The notes: generated by a model from the sequence alone, not told the origin. A stretch of DNA of 64,000 nucleotides from Patescibacteria group bacterium (GCA_042568575.1 JBHPIO010000002.1:1-64000); one strand, 5' to 3'. Counted from the first letter of the stretch, positions 5,175-24,422 are shown. Numbers and translations are program-made.

Positions 5175-5187
5175 GTCTGATTTATTC

Positions 5188-5429
5188 ATGACTAAAATTG
5201 AAAAGACCGTACAACAATTCATTAATCGCCCTACATCGCTGCGCTATGGTGAAATTGAGAAAGTGCTTAAATACTTTGGATTTGAGATGATTATGGCAAA
5301 AGGCAGTCACAAAAAGTTTAAACACGCTCTTCCCTGGCAACTGATTTAGTAATTCCTGTTCATAATAACGACTGTAAAGACTTCTATAAAATTCAGGCTA
5401 CAAAAATTGTTAAAAAGCTTATCAGATGA
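5188..5429 (+). pseudogene. hicA: HicA-family mRNA interferase toxin, frameshifted near 5330
   Basis: MTKIEK...LKYFGFEMIMAKGSHKKFKH stops at TAG 5347; the shifted frame continues LATDLVIPVHNNDCKDFY...KKLIR to TGA 5427-5429, overlapping the next ATG. Confidence 0.8.
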
Positions 5430-5755: not shown

Positions 5756-5783
5756 TTGACATTTCTTGTATTTATAGTACAAT
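5756..5783 (+). promoter_or_regulatory. sigma70-type promoter of high-GC gene 1
   Basis: TTGACA-16 nt-TACAAT. Confidence 0.55.
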
Positions 5784-5979
5784 AATCCTCTGCTTGAATA
5801 ATTCGGTCTTATCTCTTTTTGGTAAGGATCGCCGGCTTGTCCGGTAATAATTATTTAGGTAATGTAATTTGAAAGTTAGTAATTTTAAGTTGTAAGCGTG
5901 TGTTTTGGTATTAAAAATTGATATCAGGGCAAACGCTTGCAACACCAATTCAGAACAATGCCAAAAGGAGGCAATTTCC

Positions 5980-6534
5980 ATGAAACGCATCAACCTTTTC
6001 CTTTCGTGCGTCATGCTGCTCTCGCTCACCGGCTGCGAGGACAACTATCAGCCCATGCCCAAGAGTACCATTCCGGTGCTCTTCCACATCCAGACCTGTA
6101 ATGTCTACCATTGGGTGTGGGAGAACGACATCGGCGATGATTACGAGGACTGCATGGATGATCCGCCGGTCAGTGGCGGTCAGTGTGGGGCTGACAGGGA
6201 CGAGATGAGGGCTATTGCCACGGATGCCTGGGAGGACTGTCTCATCCAGCTTCCCTACGTCGCCTATGAGTGCGTCGAGCAACTCCAGCCGTTCAGCAAA
6301 ACGCACGACTCCGACGGTGACGGCATATCGGACAATCACGAGTATGAGGGTGGTACGAACCCGTGCGAACCCTGCTCGTTCGGTGGGACGCCTGGCGAGA
6401 ACTGCGACGGGGACCTGAACCACGACCGTGATGTCCGCAATAACGCGGATGACACCCACCCCCTCTGCGGGCAGATGTATGACGGGGAATGGATCCCTAA
6501 CCCGGAGGCCATCAACGGCAATCCCTGCGCCTAG
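5980..6534 (+). CDS. High-GC Cys/Asp-rich lipoprotein with a DxDxDG (thrombospondin type 3-like) Ca-binding motif
   Basis: SD AAGGAGG 5965-5971 before ATG 5980; lipobox LSLTGC; DSDGDGISDNHE; about 60% GC in sampled lines. Confidence 0.7.
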   Translation: MKRINLFLSCVMLLSLTGCEDNYQPMPKSTIPVLFHIQTCNVYHWVWENDIGDDYEDCMDDPPVSGGQCGADRDEMRAIATDAWEDCLIQLPYVAYECVEQLQPFSKTHDSDGDGISDNHEYEGGTNPCEPCSFGGTPGENCDGDLNHDRDVRNNADDTHPLCGQMYDGEWIPNPEAINGNPCA

Positions 6535-6604
6535 CTACTTCCGCTTCCTCCTGCCTGCTTCCTTCCTTTCTGGCTCACAAAATTACTAACCTTCTCACCT
6601 TTTC

Positions 6605-6639
6605 AGGGGCGGTCTTGTATCGCCCCTCCAGCCTTTTTT
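6605..6639 (+). terminator. Intrinsic terminator-like hairpin after high-GC gene 1
   Basis: AGGGGCG/CGCCCCT stem, T-run at 6634-6639. Confidence 0.55.
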
Positions 6640-6654
6640 GCTATAATCAAACCA

Positions 6655-7290
6655 ATGAACAACATTCACCCTACCAAGTCGCAACTTCTCGACTTTTGGA
6701 AAGAGACTTTTAACTTTTCCGAGAGGATTCTTGCGGCATTTAAAAAGGTTCCCAGGGAGGATTTTGTTGGGGAAGGTGAGAAGGATCTTGCATATGCCGA
6801 TGTGCCTCTTCCGACTGCCGAGGGGCAGACTATTTCACAGCCGAGCACGGTGATGATGATGCTTGATCTTCTTGAAATTCAACCCGATGATCGAATCCTG
6901 GAAATAGGTTGTGGAAGCGGATATAATGCGGCGCTCATGTCCGTTATCGCAAAAAAAGGCCAGGTTACAACATGTGATATTTTCGAGTCTCTAACTGAAA
7001 AAGCGACATCGAATCTTCGCGACTATAAAAATATTGAAGTAATTTCGGATGATGGATTTAAAGTTGCAAAGGAAAAAGGGCCTTTTGATAAGGTCGTTTT
7101 AACAGCGGCCATAAAGGAGATCCCGGATGTACTGATAGACAACTTAAATGATAACGGAATTATCCTTGCGCCTGTCGGAGATATATTTATCCAGATAATG
7201 ATCCGACTTCGTAAGTCGGGTGGCAAAATTAAAAAAGATGAACACGGCGAATTTATGTTTGTTCCTATTCAGGGGGAGTATGGATTCTAA
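6655..7290 (+). CDS. pcm: Protein-L-isoaspartate O-methyltransferase
   Basis: VPREDF, AYAD.PL, GQTISQP, LEIGCGSGY, FVP motifs. Confidence 0.9.
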   Translation: MNNIHPTKSQLLDFWKETFNFSERILAAFKKVPREDFVGEGEKDLAYADVPLPTAEGQTISQPSTVMMMLDLLEIQPDDRILEIGCGSGYNAALMSVIAKKGQVTTCDIFESLTEKATSNLRDYKNIEVISDDGFKVAKEKGPFDKVVLTAAIKEIPDVLIDNLNDNGIILAPVGDIFIQIMIRLRKSGGKIKKDEHGEFMFVPIQGEYGF

Positions 7291-7670
7291 GCACTAGCCA
7301 CATAAAGCATAACTCCGACACCAAGTATAACGAACAAAGCTCCTCCAGCAGCTAAAAACACTATTACCCTTTTTTGATCCGCGTTCATTTTTTGCCCAGC
7401 TTGATTTAGTTTTTTCTTTTTCTGGGAAGCAATTATTGGGATTATTAAAGCTGGCCAAATAGCTATAAATGGAATGAATGATGTGTCGCTGCCTATACCG
7501 TCAAAGCCGGGCTTGTCGCCAAAAATCATGTATACCATTATTCCAACTCCTAAAGTGAAGACTAATATTCCAATGATTATTTTTATTTTAAAATTCTTTC
7601 CAGTTGGCTTTTTCTTCTCAATATCTTCAAGTGGACCTGAATATCTGTGCGGATCTATATTGCTGTTCAT
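7287..7670 (-). CDS. Membrane protein (3 TM)
   Basis: Three hydrophobic segments. Confidence 0.6.
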   Translation of the reverse strand: MNSNIDPHRYSGPLEDIEKKKPTGKNFKIKIIIGILVFTLGVGIMVYMIFGDKPGFDGIGSDTSFIPFIAIWPALIIPIIASQKKKKLNQAGQKMNADQKRVIVFLAAGGALFVILGVGVMLYVASA

Positions 7671-7744
7671 GGGAGAATGATTAGTGCTTGCTTACATTTA
7701 ATCGTATACTAGTGGGGAAAGCAAATTTGTAATCTACTTTTATC

Positions 7745-8113
7745 ATGAAAAAAATCGCAACAATAACACTCGCTCTATCTTTCCTTCTCCTTTCTGGCTG
7801 CCTTTCCCAGGAGCTTTCCACTTCAGACGACATTGTTAAAGGCAACACGGTAAGAATAAAAGGTCAACTTTCACGAATTCCATCTCAGCATATGATTAAT
7901 ATCCCGGATGGATATGAGCATGTGGATTATTTTGATTTTAACGATGGTGATCAAATTGTTTTTTACGCAAACGAGCTCGTAAGTTGTAATAAAGATGACA
8001 TTATTTTGACAGGAGAAATTATTGAGATTGAAGGGACGTCAAAACGTCCAGATTCAGATGAGCCGTTCACTGAACTCCAACTTCTGGTTGAGAAGTTTGA
8101 ATGCGATAATTAG
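7745..8113 (+). CDS. Lipoprotein of unknown function
   Basis: Lipobox LLSGC. Confidence 0.7.
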   Translation: MKKIATITLALSFLLLSGCLSQELSTSDDIVKGNTVRIKGQLSRIPSQHMINIPDGYEHVDYFDFNDGDQIVFYANELVSCNKDDIILTGEIIEIEGTSKRPDSDEPFTELQLLVEKFECDN

Positions 8114-8117
8114 GCGA

Positions 8118-8777: not shown

Positions 8778-8886
8778 AATTAAAATGTTAGTTCAAGATT
8801 GGCATTATACTGACGAACCCTTGAAAGTCAAATTTTGTTCATGGGTATAAGTAGGCTATTATGTTGATCGAAATTTAACCTAAATC

Positions 8887-9801
8887 ATGCGCGTTAGAAG
8901 CAAAGAGACAACCGGAGAGATTTTTATGATGATATCGGCCGCGTTGCATGGATTTTTCCCTCTGCTTGCTAATACCGGCGTTAATTATCTTCCGCCTGTG
9001 TTTTTTGCGGGAATGAGTGTTTTGCTTTCATCTGTTTTGTTCTTTATTTTCCTGATTTATACGGGAAATTTTCGCAAAATTTTTAACAAGAAAGCGCTTC
9101 CCTATATTTTAGGAGTTACGGTGCTTGTTGTTATTATTCCTTCGATTCTTATTTTCATTGGGACGAGTATGACGTCAGGTGTGAACACAGCGATTTTGCT
9201 TCAAACCGAGGTTCTGTTTACTTTTATTGTTTTTGGACTCTTTTTTAAGGAAAAAATCACGACGAAAAAACTCCTTGGTGGCCTTGCTATTATTGGTGGT
9301 GCTACAATAATTCTCTATAATGGCTCGTTTTCGCTTAATTGGGGTGATTTTATGATTATCCTTGCGACTTTTTTCTATCCTTTTGGAAATAGATGTGCCA
9401 AAAAAGCCCTGGAAATTGTGCCATCGAGCGTTATTCTGTTTGTTCGTTCGTTGATTGGCGGAACCTTCCTAGTTGTTATTAGTTTATTATTCGAAAAACA
9501 TATTGGATTTGGAGGGGATTCAATGCTAATTCCGGTTCTTTTTGTTCTTGCGAATGGATTCCTCATTATGTTCCTTTCCAAGATTGTTACTTACGAGGCA
9601 TTTAAGCGAATTGACGTTACAAAAGCGATTGCACTTGTTATGTCTGAGCCGGCATTCGCCTTAATCTTCCTGATGATTTTTCTTCAACAGTTCCCGAATT
9701 TATATCAGGTTATCGGACTTATTATTATTATGATTGGAGTCGGCTTTGTTGTTTTCAAAAAGCGCAAGGCAAAGGATCTAGAAGGAATTGCCGTGGATTA
9801 A
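8887..9801 (+). CDS. DMT/EamA family transporter
   Basis: About 10 TM helices in two repeats; FFKEKIT motif. Confidence 0.85.
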   Translation: MRVRSKETTGEIFMMISAALHGFFPLLANTGVNYLPPVFFAGMSVLLSSVLFFIFLIYTGNFRKIFNKKALPYILGVTVLVVIIPSILIFIGTSMTSGVNTAILLQTEVLFTFIVFGLFFKEKITTKKLLGGLAIIGGATIILYNGSFSLNWGDFMIILATFFYPFGNRCAKKALEIVPSSVILFVRSLIGGTFLVVISLLFEKHIGFGGDSMLIPVLFVLANGFLIMFLSKIVTYEAFKRIDVTKAIALVMSEPAFALIFLMIFLQQFPNLYQVIGLIIIMIGVGFVVFKKRKAKDLEGIAVD

Positions 9802-9828
9802 AAAAAGAGAGCCCCAAGCGAGCTCTCT
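9800..9828 (-). terminator. Intrinsic terminator ending the sigma/A2M/lipoprotein unit
   Basis: AGAGAGC/GCTCTCT stem followed by a T-run on the minus strand. Confidence 0.7.
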
Positions 9829-9849
9829 CCTTAATCAAACCTAACTAAT

Positions 9850-10473
9850 TTAGTTAAACGTAAGACTTTCAACTATTTTGTCAGTCATTTCGATTCGTTT
9901 TTTCTGAGAATCCGAAAGCTCCATCTTGAGCAATTCAGTCCCCGGATCTTCATATATTGCGTAATCTTCTTTTGCAAAGAGGTTTACGGCGAACGCAGCT
10001 TCAGGCCACTCTTCGTTTGGTGTCTCTATGAAATATGTATTTTGAAATCCAAGATCACCCATTTTTGTAACTTCGAGATATGAAGTCACACCTTCTTTCA
10101 TTTGCGTGCAGTCTTTAACATATTCAACAAGGTCTGCTTCGTCACAGGCATTTCTTAATGAAAATCCTGGCTCCTGCCTCTCAAGAAGTCGCGCGAAGTA
10201 ATCCGAACGTTCAAGAGTAAATAAAACGGTTGGGATAAGGAAATCTCTTTCTTCGTCATATTCTCCTATGTGGATTCTAAGAAGTTCTTCTTCCTCGTCG
10301 TATACTTTGATGTCGTACTTTGCGGGATAATCGAACCCAAACCCGATTTCATCGTTAGTGTATTGGGTTAGTTCGCCAGTGTCCTGCGGTGCGGTTTCGG
10401 TTGGCTCGGCGCATCCATGAAGTCCAAGGACTGCCATAAATGTTACGATGCCAACTAAGATTATTTTTTTCAT
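9850..10473 (-). CDS. Lipoprotein, PsbP-like pattern
   Basis: Lipobox LHGC; YTNDEIGFGFDYP motif. Confidence 0.7.
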   Translation of the reverse strand: MKKIILVGIVTFMAVLGLHGCAEPTETAPQDTGELTQYTNDEIGFGFDYPAKYDIKVYDEEEELLRIHIGEYDEERDFLIPTVLFTLERSDYFARLLERQEPGFSLRNACDEADLVEYVKDCTQMKEGVTSYLEVTKMGDLGFQNTYFIETPNEEWPEAAFAVNLFAKEDYAIYEDPGTELLKMELSDSQKKRIEMTDKIVESLTFN

Positions 10474-10484
10474 ATTATTGAGAA

Positions 10485-11072
10485 TTATTCAGCTGGAGCT
10501 GATGGGTAGTTTGAAGGGTCTTCGTCAGGATGAACTCCGCCTCCGCCTTCGATCTGAGGTTCGTCGTCTTCTTCTCCAAACATTTGGTTCATACAATTAT
10601 CAAATGATGCTTCTCCTTCTTCGACTTTATCTTCCGGGATTACGTAGTTAGTTAATCCAACTTCGGTGTTGTCCAGGTCGAGAAAGAAAACATTGTCTGC
10701 TTGTGTTTTCGATGACCAAACATTCCAACATGGGCCAGGTGAATTATCTACACCAGTTCTCCATACAATAAGTTGTTTTTCTTCCAGACCTAAAAGGTAC
10801 AACATATCTATGTTTGGGTTTTCAAGCGTAAACAGAACTTCTCCGTCTTTAACAGATGTAATAGTCCCGTCTTGTGTGTTGTATTTATAATCTAGGGTTT
10901 CCACGATTTCTCTTTTCTGAGACACAGAAGTCTCATTTGTTGGCGCCGTTTCTTCCATAGAAGTATCTTCGCCTGGAGTAGTTGCGTCCTGGGTTGGTTC
11001 TGATGAACCACATCCAGAGAGTCCTAGTATTGCGAGAATGCTAATCATTCCTGCGATTGCGAGCTTTTTCAT
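10485..11072 (-). CDS. Acidic lipoprotein
   Basis: Start MKKLAIAG at 11072; lipobox LSGC; signal peptide resembles that of 9850-10473. Confidence 0.7.
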   Translation of the reverse strand: MKKLAIAGMISILAILGLSGCGSSEPTQDATTPGEDTSMEETAPTNETSVSQKREIVETLDYKYNTQDGTITSVKDGEVLFTLENPNIDMLYLLGLEEKQLIVWRTGVDNSPGPCWNVWSSKTQADNVFFLDLDNTEVGLTNYVIPEDKVEEGEASFDNCMNQMFGEEDDEPQIEGGGGVHPDEDPSNYPSAPAE

Positions 11073-11104
11073 TGTTTTGAGGGTTAAAATTATATGCTCT
11101 GTTA

Positions 11105-11136
11105 TCAATAACACTTAAATTCTAGAAAGTTGCGGT
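11105..11136 (-). promoter_or_regulatory. Putative ECF sigma promoter, copy 2
   Basis: ACCGCAACTT-N12-GTGTTATTGA; both boxes and spacer length identical to 17220-17251. Confidence 0.75.
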
Positions 11137-11147
11137 AATCGCGACGG

Positions 11148-14100
11148 TTATCTTTCGATAGTAATTTTATCGCCCGATGTGATGTTTGCAACTTCTGGGA
11201 ATAGGAAGCTTTCGATTTTTGCCGGATCGGCATAGAAAGTTCCCGGGTGAATTACTGTGGCGTAGTAAGTTCTGTACGGCTTACTGTTCTCACCATTAAA
11301 CCAGTAGAAGTATACTTCTTGATTATGAATGTTATACGGGCTTGCGTTTCCATAATAGCTACCAAAGACCTTAGGGGCTGTTAGCAATTTTAGACCGCTA
11401 GGCATAATGTCCGTAATTAAGTAAGAAGTATCTTTGTCACCCTGAAGGGCAAGTGTGATTTTTACAATATCACCTTCCTGGTATGTTGAATCATCACGAC
11501 TTAAGTTTGTGTAAGATCTAGAAATATTTACGCTGCTGTCTGTCTCGAAGTTTTCAGGGGCAATTGGTTCTTCGTAGTAAATAACTGCTCCAAGATCTCC
11601 CTTAACATCGGTTAGACTTATTCCTTTCATCTTGCTTGCAAGGACTTTATGAGTACCACAAGGCTTAAGTGTGATCTGTTCTTCTGAGTTTCCAGGACGA
11701 ACTGTAAAGCTAACTTCGTCAGGGCTTGCGTATTCAATCGCGTTCTTAATATATCCAATTTCATACAGATTGAGAATGTCGTCTTTTATACCGTGTCTTT
11801 CAACATAAATGTATAGTTCAATTGCGTCATCTTTTTCGCCAAGACCTGCAGCAAGGATTGCTCCAAGCGCTGTTTCGTAAGCGTTGTCGTCTGCCAATTC
11901 ATCAGAGACTTTATTGTAGATCTTTCGTGCTTCTCCGTGATCTCCAAGGCTTTCGAATGCAAGTGCGATATATAATTTTTCTGTAAGAGTTAGAGTCTCG
12001 TCGTCCTTAATTATTTGAAGACTGTTAAGAACCGGTTCGTTCATGTTAGCCAGACCAAGCATCGCAAGAATTACTTCTTCAAAATTTGCATCTGGATTGT
12101 TATAGAAAGAGTTGAAGTATTTCTTGAGCTCTCTAGTGTTGTATCTTTCAGGATTTGGATCGACTGTTGTGATTAATGCTGAAAGTCTTAAATCAGATGA
12201 AGAGTATGGAATAAGGCTTAATCCACCATCTACCTGTTGATAGTTTGTGATTTCAAAGTCACGTCTCTGCGCATACTCAACTTCGAAGTGTTCTGCAAGA
12301 ATTTCTCGCGATATCACCTCGGAAAGTCTTTGATCAATACGTTCACCTTCAGTGAAGTAAAGCCATAATAAGTTCTGATAATGCCTTGTTAATCCGGTAT
12401 CCATGAAGTAAATTTCTGCGAATCCTTCTTCTGGAAGGTCGAATACTGTTGTTTCGTCTACAGAAGGGATTAGTTCAAGGACATCGTGCTTTAGACGAGA
12501 ACCTTTAACTTCCATTGGGAGCGAAATTGCGTCTTTCTTAGATCCTGCTTTTGCATCGATTTGGATATCGTGAGTTCCAAGTTTTAGCTCTGGAAGTTCA
12601 TAATATGATCCTGTAAATGCAGTTCCAGTTATTGTGTCTGACTTTTCTACTCCAAGCGATGTTGCTGTAAGGTTGAAGTCAACTTCGTCGTCCTTAGAAA
12701 GCGCGTTTCCGAATGCTCTAAATTTAAGGATTGGATTATCTTTAATTGAGTATTCCTTGTTCATCACAAGGTCAGCGAACATTGGCAGTGTAACTTTAAC
12801 TGATCCAATTCCAACACCTGCTCTTAAATCTTGAGTATCAATGGCTTTTGCCACAACCCTCCAAGAAGTGATGTTGTCTGGAACTTGGAATGTTACGCTT
12901 CCTTTACCGTTTGATCCTGTTGTGATTGTTTCAAATAGGGCTGTGTCTTCGAAGTCGTTTCGTACGCCGTCTCCGCCTTTATCGTTATGAACGTAGAAGT
13001 TGTTGGCAATGTATGTGTGCTGATCTTTAACTTCGAAGTTATATACCCAAGTTGGTTTATTAACTTTTTTGATCGATGTAACTTTCACATTGTTGCCTTC
13101 TTTTGTCGTTAGATAGTCCCCAATTCTAACGTTTCCTGCAACGTCCCACATGTTGTTAACAAACAGCACATGCTCTCTTGTAACTTCGAGACTGTCGTTA
13201 ATTACGAGGTATTCATTAACATAATGCGAAATTGTGCTGGTAACTTCCGATGCAACTAGTTCATTAGAAAATGCGTGTTTTCTGGTTAAAATGTAGTCAC
13301 CTTTCGCAACTTCCTCGATTGATTTGTATGTTCCGTCTGACATTAGAATTTGTGTACCGGCAGTGAAACATCCACCTGCTTCTGCTCCTGTTTCCAGGTT
13401 TGCGGTGTCTAAAGGATTTGTATGAGTTACGTATCTTTGAATGATACCGTCAGTTTCGCGTGAATATAATTGCTCAATCGGATCCTGAATTCTGTTGTAG
13501 ATAAGTTTGTAATATGCCTCATCAACAAGATTCATATTAATTTTTGTAGCAACTGGGTTTCCGTCTTTATCTTTTACAGTAACGTTTAGTGTTACTTTCT
13601 CTCCCGGTTCGTATGAATCCTTATTAGTTTCCAATTCAACATCCAAACCTTTCAACTCTTTATTATAAGAAACCGAAGTGCTGAAAGTTGTACGATACAT
13701 TTTTCCATCAAACCATACTCCCTGAAGATATATGTTTGGAACATCTTCTTTTTCGAATTTGAATGTATAGTATGGAGATTCCTTTACAACGTGTTCATGA
13801 AGTCCGTTTTGAAGCTGCATGAATAGGAATTGTCCTCCAACATCTACGCTTAAAGGTGTGTCGCTTTGTGTGAATGCTGTTTCAACAGATTCTCCAACAT
13901 CGAAATAATGTTCACCATCATCGTTGTTTAGGATTTTCATTGAATAATAATCTCTACCTCGAGAACTTTCAGATCCGTAAATATAAAGGTTGTCTTCAGC
14001 AAGTCCTCCGTCGTCGTCGTACGTTTCAAACTTAACTGTGTAGTATTTAGATGGATCCATTTCGAATTCATAGTGAGCTACTCCATCGTCATCTGTCACA

Positions 14101-16583
14101 ACGTCAAATGTTCCGTATTCGTTGCTTGCCTGCCTGTAATCATAATCTTTTACAACTTTTTTATTGATGAAATCGTAGTGCTCGCCAGTTTCGATTTTAT
14201 TCCACCATTTTTCCGTAATTATTCCCTTAACTTTTCTGTTGCCTGCAATGTCTCCAATGTGATTTCTATAAGAGTATGATCCTTCATTCTCATTAATCTT
14301 GGTAAGGTCGATCCAGTTAGTCTGGATGTCCATGTATGCAGTGTTGTCTTTAACTTCTTTCTTTGCGTCCACGTCTATGTGCGATCTGTATACTGCAATG
14401 CTTACGGATCCGTAAATGTCAGATGATTCTCCTTTGGTTGGATAGAAAGAGAAGTATTTAGTATCGACCTCATAGTTTGCTGCGGCCTTTTGTGTGTAAA
14501 CTGCCTTTCCATTTTCATCTGTTACGAGAGCAGTTCCATCTGAATCTCCGTAATTAAGTTCTACATAAGGTACAGGAGTGCCGTCAAAGAAATGCGTATC
14601 GATATCGATTTTGATTTCTTCTCCCGAGAACATTGCTCTCTTGTTTGGAGTTACTTCAATATCATAAGTTGGCTTTGTATAAGCGCGAACGTTAATTGCT
14701 TTGCTGCCTATAGTTTTTTCTCCGTCGTAAATTGCGATTACATAACTACCCGGAAGCATTTCTTCAAAGTCGTATGATCCTGAGAATGTGCCGTCTGCTT
14801 CTGCTTCGAAACTAAGATCGGAAACAAAGGCATCTGGAGCGAATCCAAGATATCCTCCCCATCCTTTATATAGCTTCATGTTCATGTCTTCTATCTGGCT
14901 GCCGTCTTTAGGGTCAACAAATCCCCAGAAACGCATTTTGTCGTTTGGAAGATACATCGGCCTGTCAGTGTCGAATGCATACCAATAACTTTTCTGTGTC
15001 TCGCGTGACACAACTTGAGTAACAATACTTTTGCCGTCTGCAGCTGTGATTTTAATGGTATTTTGTGAGTGATTTTCTTGAGGGAAGTCGAATCTTGCAA
15101 CACCATTGTTATCTGTCTTTGTGGAAATACTTTCACCTATAACTTCAACAGTTGCGTTTGTAGCAGGTTTTTCTGCTGAAAGATCATGTGTCCATACAAT
15201 TGCGTCTGTGGCTGTTGCAGAAATGAATGCCGAAAGGTCAGTCATTTGAACTAGTGCCTGATCCATATCATCGTCAGTATTTACCTTGAAGAGGTAATAC
15301 CCGTCAGATAATTCTGCCGAAGGCATGTGGATGTATTGTCTCCAATCTTCTTCGCCAATTTCCGCTTCAAAAGTTGCGATTTTCTCTAAGTCAGAAATTT
15401 TATAGTCGTATTGGCTTCTAGTTAAACTTGCCCAGTAAGGGATATTTTCTCTTTCTTCCAACGCTTCGATGTATTTATCTACATCACTGAATTTGTATAC
15501 TTCAACATCAACTGTTGGAGCTTTTGGTTCAGGAATTTCAATTTCTATTGGATTTCCCTCTTCATCAAATTCAAGTTCTGCTTCTGGGATTTCAACAAAT
15601 ACCGGAGTGTCATCAAGATTTGTATAAACAGTCATTGCAAGCGGTTGAGCTGAACTTACTTCGTAGTAATCTTTCGAGAAACTGAAGTATTTTGACGATG
15701 TAGGCGCAGGTCCTTCCGCAGTTTCGAACTGAACTGTGTAGTCTTCGAGTAATGTTTGATCACTTTTTAGAAGTGGAAGTCCGGCTTTTAAAGTAACTGT
15801 ATAGATAGTAGCCGGATCAAGTCCTCCTTGTGGAACAAAACTCACTGTTCTTTGGTGGTGTTCGAATGTTCCCTGAACTTCAGGAGAAATTTCGAAGTAT
15901 TGGAACATGTGTTCAACGTCTAATTGTTCGTGGCTGAATGTGAATTCGATACCTGAGTTTGTTGGTATACCACTGGTTTTGTCAGCCGGAAGGCTTCCGG
16001 TGACTTTAAAAGTATCTTTTACTTGATACGCCCAGCTGTATCCTTTAGGTCCTTCGTCTGTTTCACTTACTATCACAAAGTTATATATGGCGTTTGGTTC
16101 GAGACCGTTTGCTGGCTGCACTTTGTATTTGCCTTCTTCTATCTTGGTGACATTAAGATCCGTATCAGGGGTTACTTTAATATTCGCTTCAACTGCTGCT
16201 GCATCAAGGTCTTCCGACGCTATTAATGTGAATGAAGTGTCTGATTCGATTCCGCTTGAGTCCTGATTATCGGCTGTCATTTCAAAATGTGCGCTTACTG
16301 TTGGAGGTCCCGAGATGAACCCGCTTTGCAGAAGGTTCTGCAGATTTGGTCCAAATACGATTGCTACTATAACGAGCACCGCGACTACGCTTGCCCATGC
16401 AATCTTTTTCGGCATAAAGAGTGAGGCGAAAAAGTTACCTCCAGATTTAGCCTTCTTTGATTTGGCAGGAGCTTTTTCCAGTCCAGTTTTCTGCTGGATA
16501 TATTTCCAGAGATACTCCTTGCTCTTTTTGACCGGAGCTTTATCGACCTTACGGTCTTTAAAGTCGTTGTTTAGTATATTCAT
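11148..16583 (-). CDS. Membrane-anchored alpha-2-macroglobulin family protein: short cytoplasmic N-terminus, TM, Ig-like (Big_5-like) domains, MG domains, Hint insert
   Basis: TDRPMYLP (MG2), YTKPTYDI, NKDSYEPGEKV, RNDFEDTA...VPDNITSWRV, C-terminal ITDIMPSG...Y.ATVIHPGTF; TM at about residues 62-78. Confidence 0.9.
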   Translation of the reverse strand: MNILNNDFKDRKVDKAPVKKSKEYLWKYIQQKTGLEKAPAKSKKAKSGGNFFASLFMPKKIAWASVVAVLVIVAIVFGPNLQNLLQSGFISGPPTVSAHFEMTADNQDSSGIESDTSFTLIASEDLDAAAVEANIKVTPDTDLNVTKIEEGKYKVQPANGLEPNAIYNFVIVSETDEGPKGYSWAYQVKDTFKVTGSLPADKTSGIPTNSGIEFTFSHEQLDVEHMFQYFEISPEVQGTFEHHQRTVSFVPQGGLDPATIYTVTLKAGLPLLKSDQTLLEDYTVQFETAEGPAPTSSKYFSFSKDYYEVSSAQPLAMTVYTNLDDTPVFVEIPEAELEFDEEGNPIEIEIPEPKAPTVDVEVYKFSDVDKYIEALEERENIPYWASLTRSQYDYKISDLEKIATFEAEIGEEDWRQYIHMPSAELSDGYYLFKVNTDDDMDQALVQMTDLSAFISATATDAIVWTHDLSAEKPATNATVEVIGESISTKTDNNGVARFDFPQENHSQNTIKITAADGKSIVTQVVSRETQKSYWYAFDTDRPMYLPNDKMRFWGFVDPKDGSQIEDMNMKLYKGWGGYLGFAPDAFVSDLSFEAEADGTFSGSYDFEEMLPGSYVIAIYDGEKTIGSKAINVRAYTKPTYDIEVTPNKRAMFSGEEIKIDIDTHFFDGTPVPYVELNYGDSDGTALVTDENGKAVYTQKAAANYEVDTKYFSFYPTKGESSDIYGSVSIAVYRSHIDVDAKKEVKDNTAYMDIQTNWIDLTKINENEGSYSYRNHIGDIAGNRKVKGIITEKWWNKIETGEHYDFINKKVVKDYDYRQASNEYGTFDVVTDDDGVAHYEFEMDPSKYYTVKFETYDDDGGLAEDNLYIYGSESSRGRDYYSMKILNNDDGEHYFDVGESVETAFTQSDTPLSVDVGGQFLFMQLQNGLHEHVVKESPYYTFKFEKEDVPNIYLQGVWFDGKMYRTTFSTSVSYNKELKGLDVELETNKDSYEPGEKVTLNVTVKDKDGNPVATKINMNLVDEAYYKLIYNRIQDPIEQLYSRETDGIIQRYVTHTNPLDTANLETGAEAGGCFTAGTQILMSDGTYKSIEEVAKGDYILTRKHAFSNELVASEVTSTISHYVNEYLVINDSLEVTREHVLFVNNMWDVAGNVRIGDYLTTKEGNNVKVTSIKKVNKPTWVYNFEVKDQHTYIANNFYVHNDKGGDGVRNDFEDTALFETITTGSNGKGSVTFQVPDNITSWRVVAKAIDTQDLRAGVGIGSVKVTLPMFADLVMNKEYSIKDNPILKFRAFGNALSKDDEVDFNLTATSLGVEKSDTITGTAFTGSYYELPELKLGTHDIQIDAKAGSKKDAISLPMEVKGSRLKHDVLELIPSVDETTVFDLPEEGFAEIYFMDTGLTRHYQNLLWLYFTEGERIDQRLSEVISREILAEHFEVEYAQRRDFEITNYQQVDGGLSLIPYSSSDLRLSALITTVDPNPERYNTRELKKYFNSFYNNPDANFEEVILAMLGLANMNEPVLNSLQIIKDDETLTLTEKLYIALAFESLGDHGEARKIYNKVSDELADDNAYETALGAILAAGLGEKDDAIELYIYVERHGIKDDILNLYEIGYIKNAIEYASPDEVSFTVRPGNSEEQITLKPCGTHKVLASKMKGISLTDVKGDLGAVIYYEEPIAPENFETDSSVNISRSYTNLSRDDSTYQEGDIVKITLALQGDKDTSYLITDIMPSGLKLLTAPKVFGSYYGNASPYNIHNQEVYFYWFNGENSKPYRTYYATVIHPGTFYADPAKIESFLFPEVANITSGDKITIER
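12984..13370 (-). other. Hint / bacterial intein-like (BIL) domain, 129 aa (residues 1072-1200), inside the A2M
   Basis: CFTAGT start, TREH block B, VYNFEV block F, YVHN end; +1 residue Asp; no homing endonuclease. Confidence 0.9.
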
Positions 16584-16585
16584 GA

Positions 16586-17164
16586 TTATATAGAGTTAGT
16601 TGCTAATAATTGTCTTAAATTGGTGAGCGCTCTATGCATCATTGATTTGACCGCGCTTTCGGATCTTTTAATAACTTCGCCAATTTCTTTATGTGAAAAG
16701 CCTTCGAAATAATGAAGACTAACTATGTTTTGATATTTTGGATTTAAAGTTCCCACTGCGTCGCTTAGCTTAGAAAGGTCTTCGTCTCCGAACATTGATT
16801 TATCAAGTGCTTCCATTTCTTCCTTTGCGTTTGTCTGAAGTTGTTTCAGTCCCTGCATTTCTTCTGTAAGCGGTGCTATTTTCGGATTTCTACGATGATT
16901 TTTTAATGCGTTGATGGCAATCCGATAGAGCCATACTTTTATCGAAACGCCGGTCCACTTAAATTTGTGAAGGCTTTCGAATGCTTTAATAAATGTTTCG
17001 GCAGTGAGGTCGTATGCGACTTCACTGGACATGGTCCTTTTCACCAAATACTTGAATATCATTTCGTAGTAATGATTGTATACCTTTTCAAATACAGCTT
17101 TGTCTGATTTGAAATCTTCAAGTATCTGCTGCTGGACCTCTGGTGAAAGGTCACTGTGTTTCAT
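16586..17164 (-). CDS. ECF (sigma-70 group 4) RNA polymerase sigma factor
   Basis: AYDLTAETFIKAF, WLYRIAIN (region 2); SHKEIGEVI..SESAVKSMMHRA (region 4). Confidence 0.92.
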   Translation of the reverse strand: MKHSDLSPEVQQQILEDFKSDKAVFEKVYNHYYEMIFKYLVKRTMSSEVAYDLTAETFIKAFESLHKFKWTGVSIKVWLYRIAINALKNHRRNPKIAPLTEEMQGLKQLQTNAKEEMEALDKSMFGDEDLSKLSDAVGTLNPKYQNIVSLHYFEGFSHKEIGEVIKRSESAVKSMMHRALTNLRQLLATNSI

Positions 17165-17219
17165 AGATATGAGGGATTATTATAATCAAGTGTAAGTTTG
17201 CACTATATGTGCTTCACTT

Positions 17220-17251
17220 TCAATAACACATGGATAAAAATAAGTTGCGGT
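17220..17251 (-). promoter_or_regulatory. Putative autoregulatory ECF sigma promoter, copy 1
   Basis: ACCGCAACTT-N12-GTGTTATTGA, 55 nt upstream of the sigma start. Confidence 0.75.
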
Positions 17252-17290
17252 TTTTATTTATGAGTGCACCGTAAAAAAGCGTTTATTTTG

Positions 17291-17323
17291 AAAAAGCCCG
17301 ACCATGAAATCAGAGGGTCGGGC
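17291..17323 (-). terminator. Intrinsic terminator of the MYXO-CTERM gene
   Basis: GCCCGACC/GGTCGGGC stem plus TTTTT. Confidence 0.75.
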
Positions 17324-17377
17324 AGGATTGGTTTTGGTTGAACGCCTAGTGCGCCCTACGTGTAGCGCGTGATGCGT

Positions 17378-19462
17378 CTACTGCGACTTGCGTCGCCGCA
17401 GGAGCAGAAGGCCAATGCAACCGATGATGAGGAACAGTGGACCGGTGGGTCCGCTGTCCTGGTTGGAAGAGCAGCCGCAGCCGCTCTTAGGTTCTTTGGT
17501 GCAGTTCGTGGTGTCGAACTGGCACTGGTTGGAGCAAGTGAGAGTGCCATCATCGAAGTCGTGATCAGCGCAGGTGTTGTTATTGAGCGCTGCGCCATCG
17601 CATTGCTCGCCGTCGTCGACAATTCCGTTGCCACAGACGTTGGACTCGGTTTCGCATGAACTGCTGCAGCCGTCACTGTCGGCGAGGTTGCCGTCGTCGC
17701 ACTCTTCTCCGTCGTCGATGGTTCCGTTTCCGCAGTTCAGCGTGCAGCCGGAAGTGTCGAAGCCGCACGATTGGTCGCAGGCGAGGTCGCCGTCGTCGTA
17801 GCCTTGATTCTGGCACGTTGCGTTGCCGAAAGCTTGCATGTCACACTCTTCGTTCGGACCGTTGATGATGCCATCACCGCAGCGGTAGCACTGCGATGCG
17901 TCGAGTTGGCAGGATGCGTCGCAGGCGAGGGTACCACCGTCGAAATTGAGAGATTCGCAGGTGTTGGTTCCCAGATCGCTGGCGTCGCACATCTCGCTGG
18001 CCTGGTTGAGAATGCCGTCACCGCAGGAAGCGTCGAAGCATCCAGAGGTGTCGACGGTGCAATCGGAGTTGCAGGTGAGGTCGCCGAAGGCGTGGCCGAA
18101 ATCGCTGCAGGTTTGGGTGCCGAAGTCGAGATTGTCGCACTCATCCGTGCCGTTCATGATGTCGTCACCGCAGATGAAGTAGTGACACCCGGAGGTGTCA
18201 ATCGTGCAGCTGCCGGTGCAGGTGAGCGTCCCGTAATCGAAGTTCAGTGATTCGCAGGTCGCGCTCCCGAAGGCTGGGCCATCGCATAGCTCGGTGCCGT
18301 CGATGGTGTTGTTGCCGCACATGTGGCAGCCAGCGGTGTCGAACGCGCAGAAGGCGTCGCAGGCGAGGGGTCCACCCACGAAACTGTGGTTGGTGCAGTC
18401 CTGGTTGTTCAGGTCGCTGCCGTCACACAGCTCTGTGCCGTTCTTGATGCCGTCGCCGCAGATGGGCTGGGGCGACATGTACTTGATCGTCCATACCTCC
18501 TCCGTGGTCACGGCCTGGCTGTCCTTGGTGAATGCGTTGTTGCCGTCATACCGCCAAAGGCCGATGTCCGGGGCTCCTCCTCCGATGGCCATTACGATAT
18601 TGTTCTGGCTGATCGCGATTCCTCGGGAATCTGTGAGCATTCTTGTCATGAACGAACCGGGGTTGCTAATCGGAATGAAGTAGACCTCGTCCCCGTTTCC
18701 TGCGGATGAGGCCACGACGTAGCTGGAATTGATATCCATGTCATCTATGGGTAGCGGCAGGAACTGCCACACACTGATGTTCGTGCTGTTGGGCGGGTTT
18801 CCACTCGAATAGGCGTGAGTGCCCGAGTAGTAGAACGTTCCGTTGTCGTCGTACAGCATTGCGTAGGGCTGTTCCGTCACCGTGAGCCCGATGTTCGGGT
18901 AGTGGACCACGGCCTCGGTAGCGATGTTGATTGATGCGACACCGCCGTCGAGCTTGTTGAGCACCCAGATGTGAGTAGCTGTCCTGGTGATTCCCAAGAA
19001 GCCGGTTCGTCCCATGTCGATTGCGACGTAGTCGGTGCAGTCCAGCGCGACTTTGGATACGAAGGTTGCGGCTTGATGAGTGCTGTAGGCGTAGGTTTCC
19101 GCTACGAGCCCCCGGTCGCCGACCTGACCAGCGTTATAGTCGCAACTGGTCGCGTCTGCGGTAAGGTCGTATATCAGCAGATGGGTGCTGTTCTGGCGGG
19201 TAGTGATGAGATGTCCCTCCGCTCCGGAGGTGATCCCGGGCCCGCTTCCCAGCACTGGGCCGATGTCTGCGTAGGGCAGTCCGTCTTCGTCGAGCAGCAG
19301 CACGGACGTGGGAGTGGTGGCAATGAAGCAGCCGTTGTCGGCAGCTTGTTGGGTTGTGGCCATGGCTTTCGGGGCATAGAGCCCCAGAGCCAGAACCGCG
19401 AGGGTGATTGCGATTGCACGTTTCTGCATGCGTTTCTCCTTGTCTCCTCTGTCAATGAACAT
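17378..19462 (-). CDS. High-GC secreted protein: beta-rich N-domain, myxobacterial Cys-rich repeats, MYXO-CTERM sorting signal
   Basis: Signal peptide from ATG 19429 (SD AAGGAG); CGDGI...E.CD repeats; C-terminal SGCGCS-linker-TM-RRRK. Confidence 0.85.
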   Translation of the reverse strand: MFIDRGDKEKRMQKRAIAITLAVLALGLYAPKAMATTQQAADNGCFIATTPTSVLLLDEDGLPYADIGPVLGSGPGITSGAEGHLITTRQNSTHLLIYDLTADATSCDYNAGQVGDRGLVAETYAYSTHQAATFVSKVALDCTDYVAIDMGRTGFLGITRTATHIWVLNKLDGGVASINIATEAVVHYPNIGLTVTEQPYAMLYDDNGTFYYSGTHAYSSGNPPNSTNISVWQFLPLPIDDMDINSSYVVASSAGNGDEVYFIPISNPGSFMTRMLTDSRGIAISQNNIVMAIGGGAPDIGLWRYDGNNAFTKDSQAVTTEEVWTIKYMSPQPICGDGIKNGTELCDGSDLNNQDCTNHSFVGGPLACDAFCAFDTAGCHMCGNNTIDGTELCDGPAFGSATCESLNFDYGTLTCTGSCTIDTSGCHYFICGDDIMNGTDECDNLDFGTQTCSDFGHAFGDLTCNSDCTVDTSGCFDASCGDGILNQASEMCDASDLGTNTCESLNFDGGTLACDASCQLDASQCYRCGDGIINGPNEECDMQAFGNATCQNQGYDDGDLACDQSCGFDTSGCTLNCGNGTIDDGEECDDGNLADSDGCSSSCETESNVCGNGIVDDGEQCDGAALNNNTCADHDFDDGTLTCSNQCQFDTTNCTKEPKSGCGCSSNQDSGPTGPLFLIIGCIGLLLLRRRKSQ
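17500..18462 (-). repeat. About seven tandem Cys-rich protein repeats (mostly about 48 aa)
   Basis: CG(D/N)G...E.CD...C......G.L.C...C..DTSGC units. Confidence 0.8.
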
Positions 19463-19571
19463 TGGTTTTCTCCAAATTCGAACCTTCTACTATCGGCAAT
19501 AGCATGCATTTGCTCCATTTGCAGATAAAAGAAGGCTTAAATTAAGTACCAAGGATATCTAATTTGCCACA

Positions 19572-19605
19572 AAACTAGCCAATTTGTCAATTAGTTGGCT
19601 AGTTT
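19572..19605 (-). terminator. 11-bp inverted repeat; terminator of the M16 gene overlapping a TTGACA box
   Basis: AAACTAGCCAA/TTGGCTAGTTT; the loop reads TTGACA on the minus strand. Confidence 0.6.
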
Positions 19606-19624
19606 AAACAGATTGCGAGTGAAT

Positions 19625-20887
19625 TTACCCAAGCAGTTTCTCAAACTGTCCCTTATTATCGTAAGGTCCAATAACGGCAACTCTCATGTTCTCGGGCTTC
19701 AACAAATCTTGTGCAACTCTTTGGATGTCTTCTACTGTAACTGCGTCTAGTTCTTTCATAATTTCTTCAGGACGCATGATCTCGCCGTGAAGGAGTTCGT
19801 ATTTACCCATCAAATGAGCAATTTCTTCGCTATCTTCTAGACGCAAAACCATTTTTCCTTTCATGAAGTTTTTCGCTTTCTCAAGCTCTTCTGGACTAAC
19901 TTTCTCTTTCCTGATTTTTTCGTATTCAGCAAGAATCGCGCTAATTGCTTCATCGATTCGTTTAACTTGTACGCCGGCTCCGGTTGATAAAATTCCTGTA
20001 TCAACAAAATTATCTGTAGCAGTTCGAATGTAATAACAAAGCCCCCTTGCTTCTCTAACAGAAAGGAACATTCGTGAGCTCATATTTCCGCCAAGAATTA
20101 TTCCGAGCAGTTTTTCTGCCCAGTGATCAATGTGTGTCTCTCTATAAGAAGGTACACCTACGATAACATGCGCTTGTTCTGTGCTTTTTTCATGAAGATA
20201 AACCAGGTCGCCACCTTCATGAGGTTCCAAACCTTTAAAATCGAAAGCCTTTTTATCGTTGCTAAATGCAAAATATTTTTGAGTAAGATCAGCAGCAGTC
20301 TTGTCATCAATGTCTCCCGCCAAAGTCAAAACGATATTATCCGGTGAGTAAAGATCCTTCTTATAGTTCACAAATTGTTCGTGAGTTACAGACTGAATGA
20401 ACTCGGGAGTTCCAATTTGATCCCATCCAAGAGGTTGATCTCCAAAAACAAGTCGCTCAAAATCCCATCCAATTTGATACATCGGGGTGTCTTGATACAT
20501 ATTGTATTCCTCCATAATTACGCCTCGTTCTTTGTCGATTTCTTTTGTGTCGAACTTTGCGTGAAGCAGCATGTCGGATAAAACATCCATTGCACGTTCA
20601 ACGTGATCTGAAGAAACTTTTACGTAATATCCCGCATATTCTTTTCCTGTGAAAGCATTGAAATCTCCACCGATTCCATCGATTGCTTCGGAAACTTCAC
20701 GAGTATTTTTGTACTTTTCGGCTCCTTTAAAGAACATATGTTCGAGAAAGTGCGAAATCCCGTTGATTCCTTTAGTTTCGTAACGCGAGCCTGCTCCGGC
20801 GAGTATTAAAACGGTGACAGCCTTGGTGCTTTTGAGATTCTCTGTTATAAGGCGAAGGCCACTTGGAAGTATGTCTTTCTTATGCAT
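19625..20887 (-). CDS. M16 family (pitrilysin/insulinase-like) zinc peptidase
   Basis: HFLEH inverted zinc motif, NAFT, SSRMF..VRE.RGL.Y; start probably MHKKD at 20887. Confidence 0.93.
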   Translation of the reverse strand: MHKKDILPSGLRLITENLKSTKAVTVLILAGAGSRYETKGINGISHFLEHMFFKGAEKYKNTREVSEAIDGIGGDFNAFTGKEYAGYYVKVSSDHVERAMDVLSDMLLHAKFDTKEIDKERGVIMEEYNMYQDTPMYQIGWDFERLVFGDQPLGWDQIGTPEFIQSVTHEQFVNYKKDLYSPDNIVLTLAGDIDDKTAADLTQKYFAFSNDKKAFDFKGLEPHEGGDLVYLHEKSTEQAHVIVGVPSYRETHIDHWAEKLLGIILGGNMSSRMFLSVREARGLCYYIRTATDNFVDTGILSTGAGVQVKRIDEAISAILAEYEKIRKEKVSPEELEKAKNFMKGKMVLRLEDSEEIAHLMGKYELLHGEIMRPEEIMKELDAVTVEDIQRVAQDLLKPENMRVAVIGPYDNKGQFEKLLG

Positions 20888-20953
20888 AAAACTTAAGTTA
20901 ATTTCTTTTATCAAAATTAACATACCTTCCGTGAATCGTCATGCCAATAGTGA

Positions 20954-20982
20954 TTGACGTATCCTTGTGAATATGCTTTAAT
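20954..20982 (+). promoter_or_regulatory. sigma70-type promoter of high-GC gene 3
   Basis: TTGACG-17 nt-TTTAAT with a TGn extension. Confidence 0.55.
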
Positions 20983-21091
20983 TACTCTCCAGGTAGCAAG
21001 CCACAGGCCTATTTGTATTTGATGGGCGCTGCGGCTGCCCTTTTACATGATAGGCCGATAGGGAAAAATTTAGTCACAAGGAGTGATTGCG

Positions 21092-21838
21092 ATGAACGAG
21101 GATGACCTCAGAGAAAAAACCGCGTTGGTGAAAGTACAGAAAGGAAGGTCAGAGATGAAGAGGAATCCGTTGATGATAGTGGCTGCTGTGCTAGCGTTTG
21201 TGCTTAGCTTCGGTGCCGGAGTGATGCTAAGGCCACGAATCATTCCTCCGCCAACCGCCAACTGCAAGCGCAAGTGCCAGACTGCCATCGCGCAGGCCAA
21301 GAAGGCGCTGCCGCCCCCGCCGAAGTGCAAGGAGTGCAAGAAGTGTGTCGTGAAGAAGCTGCCCTCGAAGAAGCTCACGAAGCTCGAGAAGGAGGCGTTC
21401 GGTCTTCTGCACGTGTGGCGTCAGTGGTGCGAGAACAAGGCTCGTAAAGAGTTCGTCAACCAGAGCATGTGCCTTCGCTGGACCAAGCTCGGGAATGCCT
21501 ACCTCAAGGCGGACATTCTGGATGAAAAGAAGCTGAGGCGCAGATGCATCGCCATGGTCATTTACGACCAACTCGGCAACAGGATCTGCAGTCAGAAGAA
21601 GCTGGGCATGGACGAGGCTTCGAAGACTCAGATCAGAAGTGAGCTTTCCTCGCTATACAGCAACCGGAAAGGCAACATCGCCGCGATTAAGCGGGCCAAC
21701 CTGCGCCGCATCAAGGCCGGCAAGAAACCGGTCAAGATCCCCGAGCTCAGGAAGTGCTACTCGGTTAAGTTCAGGAAAGGCAAAGTGAAAATGCTCAAGT
21801 GGGTCTGGGACTTCCAGCGTCCCAAGTCCACCAGGTAG
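21092..21838 (+). CDS. High-GC, Lys/Cys-rich membrane-anchored or secreted orphan protein
   Basis: SD AAGGAG before ATG 21092; second SD-like site and ATG at 21155 followed by a hydrophobic anchor; Lys mostly AAG. Confidence 0.7.
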   Translation: MNEDDLREKTALVKVQKGRSEMKRNPLMIVAAVLAFVLSFGAGVMLRPRIIPPPTANCKRKCQTAIAQAKKALPPPPKCKECKKCVVKKLPSKKLTKLEKEAFGLLHVWRQWCENKARKEFVNQSMCLRWTKLGNAYLKADILDEKKLRRRCIAMVIYDQLGNRICSQKKLGMDEASKTQIRSELSSLYSNRKGNIAAIKRANLRRIKAGKKPVKIPELRKCYSVKFRKGKVKMLKWVWDFQRPKSTR

Positions 21839-22065
21839 AACATCGCCTCCATCCTTCATCCACTCTCTCCCCAGGCCACCAAACCCCTTCGGCCTATTTC
21901 TCTCCAAAAAGCATAAATAAGAGCACGGGTGTCTACTCAAAACATCCGCTATCCCAATTTGTATGCAAACCGCACTGCGTTGCCGTATAGCAACCCAAAT
22001 TTGACATACTTAGCGGCACCTTATTTCGCTTAGCTCGCAAAATCACTGACGGTTGTTGAGACGCG

Positions 22066-22096
22066 AGGCACACACCTTCCCACACGCCTTTTTTTT
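22066..22096 (+). terminator. Hairpin plus T8 ending the long 3' UTR of high-GC gene 3
   Basis: AGGC/GCCT stem, C-rich loop, eight T. Confidence 0.45.
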
Positions 22097-22133
22097 CTGT
22101 AATATAGTAACCCGCAACCAGTTAACTGAATTT

Positions 22134-24413: not shown

Positions 24414-24422
24414 TCAATACTT

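Follow-up and report, generated by a model that had tools for sequence, protein, structure and literature searches.

How does a small AT-rich genome come to carry solitary genes whose codon style is the opposite of that of the rest? The question arises at the start of contig 12 in a Patescibacteria draft genome (GCA_042568575.1, hereafter G000; 1,203,139 bases in 31 contigs, 38.3% GC, 82% complete). The opening 64 kb of that contig, which we call the window, hold three GC-rich gene cassettes encoding a lipoprotein (cassette 1), a beta-propeller/cysteine-repeat surface protein (cassette 2) and a lysine-rich protein with ten cysteines (cassette 3). The original prediction took them either for single genes repeatedly captured from a GC-rich, Myxococcota-like partner or for genes tuned for translation by a host ribosome. 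Sequence comparisons suggest a different explanation, to which we give about even chances: the three cassettes would belong to a conserved expression class, GC-rich, Shine-Dalgarno (SD)-dependent and translated by the bacterium's own ribosomes, in which exported proteins are over-represented and accessory members are often gained and lost. The class has the appearance of an additional mode of gene expression rather than of DNA newly acquired from elsewhere. It extends through the family to which G000 belongs, small AT-rich bacteria allied to Candidatus Peribacteria, and probably through the order.

The organism appears to be a member of the candidate phyla radiation (CPR), related to Peribacteria but AT-rich. 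The M16 peptidase of the window is 54% identical to that of G041, the GC-rich (56-60% GC, 1.1 Mb) genome of an uncultured Candidatus Peribacteria bacterium, as against 28-29% to those of two Myxococcota-type genomes. Among the 80 loci found to have the cysteine repeats of cassette 2, two carry the label of such bacteria, and G041 is the source of one of them. That neither BamA nor bS21 was found adds weak evidence, the genome being incomplete, whereas a protein-atlas search with UvrB yielded generic clusters only. For comparison we used G001, a same-genus sister species whose native proteins are 84-93% identical to those of G000; G006, a complete, single-contig relative from another genus (1,374,545 bases, 35.5% GC, median GC content at third codon positions (GC3) 0.25); and a family sample that numbered 13 genomes for the peptidase search described below.

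Three GC-rich islands in an AT-rich genome

Windows of 300 nt across G000 have a mean GC of 0.383 (sd 0.049, 99th percentile 0.573). The values rise to 0.58-0.61 at positions 6001-6600, 0.54-0.61 at 17251-19500 and 0.52-0.58 at 21001-21900, with surroundings of 0.35-0.45. The coding sequences of cassettes 1, 2 and 3 have GC contents of 0.587, 0.593 and 0.561 and GC3 values of 0.77, 0.76 and 0.80, compared with a median GC3 of 0.30 over the 1101 open reading frames (ORFs) called in G000 by a crude longest-ORF method. The contrast that the original prediction had drawn by eye is therefore real, and several of its other observations hold as well: SD sites are found in the sequence ahead of each of the three genes, cassettes 2 and 3 each have two in-frame SD-led starts (the signal peptide begins at the downstream start in both), and each product is exported and cysteine-rich (4.4-6.7% Cys), with a signal or membrane segment at its N-terminus.

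Three elements of the proposed cassette layout stood only in part. A TTGAC promoter box had been assigned to every cassette; cassettes 1 and 2 have one, whereas the box ahead of cassette 3 lies in native DNA shared with G001. All three had been described as standing alone between native genes, but cassette 1 adjoins a NikA-like gene and a restriction/SIR2 defence cluster. Terminator hairpins can be seen by eye after cassettes 1 and 2, but a strict terminator scan calls neither. Inspection of the flanks, without a systematic search for repeats or attC, brought no integrase, tRNA site or direct repeat to light, nor any mobility gene around cassettes 2 and 3. The leaders inside the cassettes are AT-rich, at 35-37% GC (0.35 in cassette 1, 0.37 in cassette 2), so GC enrichment sets in only at the SD or the start codon, after an AT-rich beginning of the transcription unit.

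A genome-wide class with its own initiation signal

When GC3 and SD matches are computed for all ORF calls, the difference first proposed for this locus, with an SD ahead of GC-rich genes and none ahead of native ones, holds genome-wide. SD statistics were taken by thresholds with no hand picking, counting a site as near the start if it preceded a candidate start in the first 50 codons and using codons 80-130 as the internal control. An SD match of at least 5 nt occurs in 73% of G000 ORFs with GC3 of at least 0.55 (n=22; control 18%) and in 10% of native ORFs with GC3 below 0.40 (n=771; control 11%). For matches of at least 6 nt the high-GC3 class stands at 64% against 0% in the control, and under another binning (20 high-GC3 ORFs) the figures are 80% and 10%. 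The same two gene classes occur in G006, which has 24 ORFs of at least 100 amino acids with GC3 of at least 0.55: the SD frequency is 75% in its high-GC3 ORFs (GC3 of at least 0.55, n=16; control 19%) and 7% in its native ones (n=932; control 10%).

Thirty-one G000 ORFs have a GC3 of at least 0.55 and 70 of at least 0.45, 23 of which were kept by eye as real genes; those dropped overlapped rRNA, were shorter than 100 amino acids, had a position pattern or translation suggestive of a wrong frame, or fell at GC3 0.45-0.55. The class comprises about 25 genes, or ~2% of the total. Its third positions (A.12, C.44, G.28, T.17) favour C-ending codons, as against.34,.13,.16 and.37 in native genes, and its start regions are predicted to fold far more strongly, with means of -13.1 and -5.9 kcal/mol per 70 nt for 19 class and 251 native genes, respectively. 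A crude pattern finds signal-peptide-like N-termini in 13 of the 23 class members and 199 of 911 native ORFs, and a lipobox in 6/23 and 30/911. Cytoplasmic enzymes and a transporter also belong to the class. Several cassettes combine TTGACA with the native -10 box (TAGTAYAAT, 26-55 nt before the start). In the literature searched, with supplementary tables such as the cysteine-rich list of PMC4736985 lying outside the search, we found nothing that describes, for these bacteria, a class of GC-rich genes led by an SD.

The other 98% of genes are AT-rich, with short G-poor leaders and no SD, and they include those for EF-Tu (GC3 0.19) and the ribosomal proteins (0.21-0.37). As these two sets are the most AT-rich and lack an SD, a GC-rich codon style does not signal high expression here as it usually would, and we rejected classical codon optimisation as its cause.

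Two GC-rich operons of fatty-acid oxidation type (contig 31, 24319-29211; contig 4, 19078-21470) encode FadB-like, thiolase, enoyl-CoA hydratase and zinc dehydrogenase proteins, which are unexpected in so reduced a genome. GC-rich stretches of up to 0.63 and no convincing ORF also occur on contig 1 (152301-153350), contig 6 (1001-1800) and contig 7 (8451-11400); these could be RNA genes or further class members. Separately, ARAGORN predicts in G000 a tRNA-Gly with anticodon ACC, which is unusual for bacteria.

The 16S rRNA of G000, whose anti-SD the original prediction had singled out for checking, ends in ...GGATCACCTCCTTTCT and so carries the canonical anti-SD. A precedent exists in the Bacteroidia, where, according to the parts of the literature available to us, ribosomes are SD-blind and very few SD-led genes (rpsU, prfB) are translated via specialised ribosomes (PMC7797042, PMC9976891, PMC13000453, PMC13000457). 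Similarly, native genes of G000 lack an SD though the 16S keeps its anti-SD, and a small set of genes has a strong one; this combination implies a separate initiation route. The two systems differ in other respects. In the Bacteroidia, as the same partial sources have it, the anti-SD is hidden by bS21, bS18 and bS6, whereas bS21 (PF01165) was not found in G000, which is weak evidence in a genome 82% complete; Peregrinibacteria often lack bS21, according to the text available of PMC9297842. The Bacteroidia also have just one or two regulatory SD-led genes in those accounts, whereas G000 has about 25, mostly exported and also GC3-rich.

These properties suggest how the class might work. Its members share a strong SD, G/C-ending codons with C preferred, a strongly folded start and, usually, export as a lipoprotein or surface-anchored protein. 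The folded start regions would block the SD-independent route used by native genes, from which we infer that the cell's own ribosomes translate class messengers by means of SD/anti-SD pairing; the GC-rich make-up would then be held by selection on the mRNA or on its decoding. Such an arrangement would give surface and accessory proteins an expression channel under a control of its own. No single cassette is indispensable, and the cassettes turn over.

The composition outlasts synonymous saturation

The best-sampled member of the class, an M23/Golvesin_C peptidase gene, lies outside the window (contig 6, 9874-10887) and was found in 12 of 13 family genomes, in syntenic position. Its tree recovers the same genus groups, and within genus g3 the same branching, as that of a flanking native gene, with branches 2-3 times longer; given this agreement and the synteny, the gene has been vertically inherited. 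All 10 full-length orthologs have a strong SD. Their GC3 spans 0.37-0.82 as compared with 0.23-0.47 in the flanking genes and exceeds both flanks in nine of the ten genomes, while GC1 (0.42-0.50) and GC2 (0.38-0.43) remain steady; only third positions shift. Identity between orthologs at four-fold degenerate sites is 0.26-0.47, which is saturated, as against 42-77% for native genes between G000 and G001. A neutral relic of an old transfer would not have remained so GC-rich past synonymous saturation. A relic of a GC-rich ancestor was considered too and rejected: the class evolves faster than native genes, not slower (the M23 proteins of G000 and G001 are 76% identical, native ones 83-93%).

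Whether orthologs in related bacteria stay GC-rich despite divergence had been set beforehand as the test, and they do: GC3 is elevated in nine of ten M23 orthologs and stands at 0.57 in a cassette 3 ortholog and 0.85 in a copy of cassette 1. Drift of class orthologs to host composition is seen only in G002 and, partly, in G009. Two more families of the order have a GC3 of 0.77 against 0.45-0.57 and of 0.48 against 0.22-0.29, both with an SD (8 of 61 genomes matched). The background composition, meanwhile, is drifting within the genus, because native four-fold sites are GC-richer in G001 than in G000 in seven of eight gene pairs (G001 locus versus window 8887-26006; for example, 0.40 versus 0.20 and 0.46 versus 0.26).

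A hairpin lies directly 5' of the M23 SD (contig 6, ~9830-9873; ~1457-1500 of locus L206) and is kept in all 10 orthologs. Its stem changes on both sides, as judged by eye (GCGCG/CGCGC, GCACG/CGTGC, GTGC/GCAC), and it may be a regulatory or stabilising element.

A family-restricted surface protein in cassette 2

Cassette 2 lies on the minus strand in a block (17253..19637) that is absent from G001, where 93 nt are found (blastn of G000 against G001). Within the block come a promoter-like site (TTGACA and a weak -10, 9/12 consensus matches, 19562..19590) and a leader, both AT-rich and belonging to the cassette, then tandem SD sites GAGGAG and AAGGAG (19436..19448, read in the sequence) before the ATG at 19429, a 683-residue coding sequence with 46 cysteines (17378..19429; alternative upstream start at 19462), and a terminator-like hairpin CCCGACC...GGTCGGG followed by a T-run (17291..17322).

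The protein consists, in order, of a signal peptide, a ~290-residue beta-propeller, DUF4215/cysteine-rich repeats, a C-terminal cysteine motif, a membrane helix and RRRK. The N-terminal domain is predicted as a beta-propeller by structure modelling (pLDDT 80.5, pTM 0.83), with surface-layer and surface-lipoprotein propellers as its best fold matches (TM 0.74 to 1l0q). Surface-layer YVTN beta-propellers, BtuG-type surface lipoproteins and the LDL-receptor propeller with EGF resemble cassette 2 in that a propeller is followed by small disulfide-rich repeats; identity to them is 7-15%, so the likeness is in fold alone. The repeats score above the cut-offs for the DUF4215/cysteine-rich acidic repeat (PF13948, 42.5 bits versus 27; TIGR02232, 38.1 versus 20.8).

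The C-terminus has the three-part layout of MYXO-CTERM proteins (...SGCGCSS..., LFLIIGCIGLLLL, RRRK), kept in 7/7 aligned homologs. In the available parts of the work on such proteins (Haft preprint 10.1101/2023.06.07.544157; PMC11980579), the elements that cassette 2 shares are a cysteine motif (GCGCS), a membrane helix and an Arg-rich cluster. The myxosortase systems treated in the same sources also include a CPBP protease, and G000 encodes one CPBP-family protease (PF02517; C1:4501-5292) of native composition, a candidate for the cognate enzyme. This native CPBP-type protease could process the C-terminal sorting signal of cassette 2. The likeness has limits: the MYXO-CTERM profile TIGR03901 gives 18.0 bits (E 0.0027), under the family cut-off of 20, and no BamA was found in G000, weak evidence given 82% completeness, from which it follows that an outer membrane may be lacking.

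Cassette 2 was matched in 12/12 family genomes, with full-length homologs of 30-41% identity in six relatives (G001, G005, G006, G008, G010, G011), all in GC-rich islands within AT-rich DNA. SD presence tracks GC content within this protein family, being found in 6/6 GC-rich copies and not in the AT-rich homolog of G002 (GC3 0.25). Our genome-collection scan used the whole protein and retained 80 loci, hit via the cysteine-repeat pattern; none of these alignments reaches residues below 141, and 79 of the 80 start at 223 or later. The similarity to Myxococcota lies in the cysteine-repeat part alone, as do two weak matches in viral contigs. The propeller itself has 23 related clusters at E <=1e-10 among 1.84 billion representatives and is found in none of the 31 genomes around G041. 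As judged by sequence matches in the genomes searched, the propeller domain is confined to the family of G000, and cassette 2, which occupies a variable spot, is a paralog within a set of surface proteins restricted to that family.

An ancestral cassette 3 and a mobile neighbourhood for cassette 1

The block of cassette 3 (SD, coding sequence and 3' untranslated region (UTR); 21060..21908, plus strand) is likewise absent from G001 by blastn, with 37 nt there. Two SD sites on the plus strand, AAGGAG (21078-21083) and AAAGGAAGGT (21140-21149), serve the alternative upstream start at 21092 and the coding sequence at 21155..21838, which encodes 227 lysine-rich residues with an N-terminal membrane or signal segment and no known family. 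Among 5.8 billion proteins it matches nothing but itself, and a protein-atlas search gave no usable hit. The C-rich 3' UTR (21839..21908) contains a small GGCC...GGCC hairpin (21873-21895), also present in G003. The TTGACG-17-TTTAAT box upstream (20954..20982, plus strand) probably drives the operon of penicillin-binding protein 2 (PBP2). A terminator-like hairpin (21024-21040, plus strand) lies in the leader of this operon just before the block and occurs in G001 too.

At this locus, five relatives keep the backbone (alpha-2-macroglobulin, ECF sigma factor, M16 peptidase, PBP2) in synteny, and G003, from another genus, has a cassette 3 homolog at the same site between M16 and PBP2, 31-34% identical and with GC3 0.57. 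The G003 and G000 copies share non-coding features as well, namely the SD context AAAGGAAGGT, an upstream AGGCCGA motif and the 3' GGCC hairpin. Since both position and non-coding flanks are shared, cassette 3 is ancestral at this site, and it has been lost in four of the six genomes compared (G001, G005, G006 and G008). A 9-nt inverted repeat, ATAGGCCGA / TCGGCCTAT, brackets cassette 3 at 21051-21059 and 21891-21899, and the G003 ortholog has a similar AGGCCGA ... CGGCCT pair; it could reflect pairing of the two ends of the messenger, or chance.

Cassette 1 is read on the plus strand from a promoter-like site TTGACA-16-TACAAT (5756..5783; 11/12 consensus matches, with a -10 of the native TAGTAYAAT type). 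Its leader (5784..5964) is followed by the SD AAGGAGG (5965..5971, read in the sequence), 8 nt before the ATG of a 184-residue lipoprotein with 12 cysteines (5980..6534), and by a C/T-rich 3' UTR with CCTCC motifs, a hairpin GGGGCG...CGCCCC (6606-6627) and a T-run (6535..6640). A pattern match gives the lipobox LTGC, the signal peptide with its Cys at +1 reading MKRINLFLSCVMLLSLTGC, and the TSP3-like, calcium-binding-type repeats are weak, below the Pfam cut-off. G006 has an ortholog-like copy, 49-51% identical and with GC3 0.85, that has a matching layout (TTGACT-17-TACAAT, SD, lipobox, hairpin) 3.5 kb from an ortholog of the neighbouring NikA-like gene.

In G000 that gene (5426-5746) ends a defence and mobility cluster upstream of cassette 1 (window 204-5746), which also comprises a Type IIG restriction-methylase (204-3359), a SIR2-domain protein (3527-4522) and a small P-loop kinase-like protein (4568-5062). 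On the other side, a PCMT gene (6655-7290) follows cassette 1; no counterpart of it was found in G001. Cassette 1 thus sits in a variable defence and mobility region.

Two further observations concern the window. The alpha-2-macroglobulin-like protein (1811 residues; 11148-16583, minus strand) has a HINT/intein-like segment at residues ~1067-1200, between the bait-region and A2M domains, and its orthologs in relatives are of similar length. Rfam gave no family at threshold within the window. A search for an ATP/ADP translocase came back empty, as it did in the control genomes, and so carries no information.

Conserved class or serial capture

Several points weigh against a conserved class held by selection. 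The evidence for selection on GC3 comes from one well-sampled gene, M23, and four thinner pairs, and the list of 23 genes was curated by eye from crude ORF calls. The M23 gene of G002 (GC3 0.37) overlaps its flanks in composition and that of G009 (0.44) is barely above them; as both keep the SD, the link between SD and GC3 is not obligatory and decay occurs. Polarised M23 substitutions lean from GC to AT (25 versus 7 in G000, 16 versus 7 in G001), counts that we set aside as unreliable the outgroups being saturated. In its third-position mix the class comes close to two GC-rich Peribacteria loci (A/C/G/T.13-.14/.38-.40/.28-.32/.16) and so would also fit transfer from such relatives. Some members, moreover, were probably acquired by transfer and are foreign to the lineage, an example being the FadB operon, found in G000 alone of 41 genomes searched, with a best match of 51% among 5.8 billion proteins.

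The strongest competing explanation is serial horizontal capture from GC-rich donors (Peribacteria-type at ~58-60% GC, or unsampled) followed by slow AT decay, with SDs kept or selected since GC-rich messengers need them. We judge this less probable than a conserved class, though it has a serious claim. Compositional genomic islands created by horizontal transfer and then amelioration are recognised by atypical GC and codon use, patchy presence and accessory functions, all of which the cassettes share, and for cassettes 2 and 3 genomic-island composition coincides with absence from the closest relative, G001. Most high-GC genes of G000 also lack a counterpart in G006: only about one third of the listed ORFs match anything there, where 661 native pairs have a median identity of 64%. 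The AT-rich versions in G002 are what decay predicts.

The GC content of the islands, 55-59%, is moreover close to that of G041 and of Candidatus Peribacter riflensis, for which the part of the report available gives 58.5% GC, 1.25 Mb, large exported cysteine-rich proteins and strain variation (PMC4736985). Like cassette 2, that bacterium of the same broad group shows, in the same text, weak likeness to the Myxococcus cysteine-rich repeat. It is uniformly GC-rich, however, and the text seen describes neither a compositional contrast nor an SD link, both of which G000 has.

Persistence and the lack of a source tell against serial capture. The protein and cluster searches found no close donor copy of cassette 2, cassette 3 or FadB, including the narrowly distributed propeller. 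M23 is vertically inherited yet GC3-rich in most genomes, and orthologs remain GC-rich past synonymous saturation. Atypical composition in the cassettes ends at the limits of the coding sequence, comes with an SD and leaves the in-cassette leaders AT-rich, unlike that of transfer islands. Nor were the SDs simply imported with donor genes, since GC-rich G041 has no SD enrichment (13% versus 19% in the control, 265 ORFs in 400 kb).

The original prediction fares unevenly in this light. Its statement that ordinary recent transfer would not explain the cassettes agrees with the diverged, still GC-rich orthologs, and its SD contrast stands. Its Myxococcota-like donor does not: the similarity covers the repeats and not the family-restricted N-terminal domain, and the one Myxococcota locus sampled has a GC3 of ~0.9 with another base mix (.04/.54/.36/.05). 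Repeated fresh capture conflicts with the ancestral position of cassette 3, and its host-ribosome alternative found no support, as set out below.

Recombination hot spots, for example at surface genes under diversifying selection, could raise GC through biased repair of imported alleles and at the same time speed divergence. The faster evolution of the class and the many variable surface proteins among its members would suit this mechanism, which we nonetheless regard as improbable: conversion tracts would not respect limits that run from SD or start codon to terminator amid AT-rich neighbours and leaders, M23 shifts at third positions only, and the SD is left unexplained.

Translation by the ribosomes of a GC-rich host, for which the genes would be transcribed here and tuned, seems very unlikely. 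It would accord with the presence, in a single genome, of two non-overlapping sets of translation signals and codon styles, and with the failure to find bS21; but no route of mRNA export is known or seen, the cell's own 16S keeps its anti-SD, the products have ordinary signal peptides and lipoboxes beside a native CPBP-type protease, and the class includes cytoplasmic enzymes and a transporter. Assembly or binning chimeras are barely credible, for although the assembly is a 31-contig draft, each island has native genes on either side within a single contig, these genes keep their synteny in relatives, and the pattern recurs in independent assemblies including the single contig of G006.

A possible second route of expression

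A bolder version of the conserved-class explanation, which we put forward only tentatively, as less likely than not, is that an order of Peribacteria-like CPR bacteria runs two translation channels, an SD-independent one for the bulk of genes and one for a minority locked in folded GC-rich messengers that SD/anti-SD pairing alone opens. If true, this would explain why the anti-SD is kept though ordinary genes never use it, and surface proteins could be switched on as a block, for instance on host contact.

For the survival of the anti-SD in lineages without SD sites, the answer from the Bacteroidia has so far involved one or two regulatory genes. The present case adds a different lineage, apparently without bS21, in which ~25 SD-led genes per genome have a codon style opposite to that of the rest, a style that has lasted across genera in at least one vertically inherited gene. 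If selection holds the pattern, compositional screens that label such genes as recent transfers would need caution, and SD together with GC3 would offer a simple way to pick out likely interaction proteins in these organisms. It would also mean that an uncultured, probably host-dependent bacterium has a second, separately controlled expression route for its surface.

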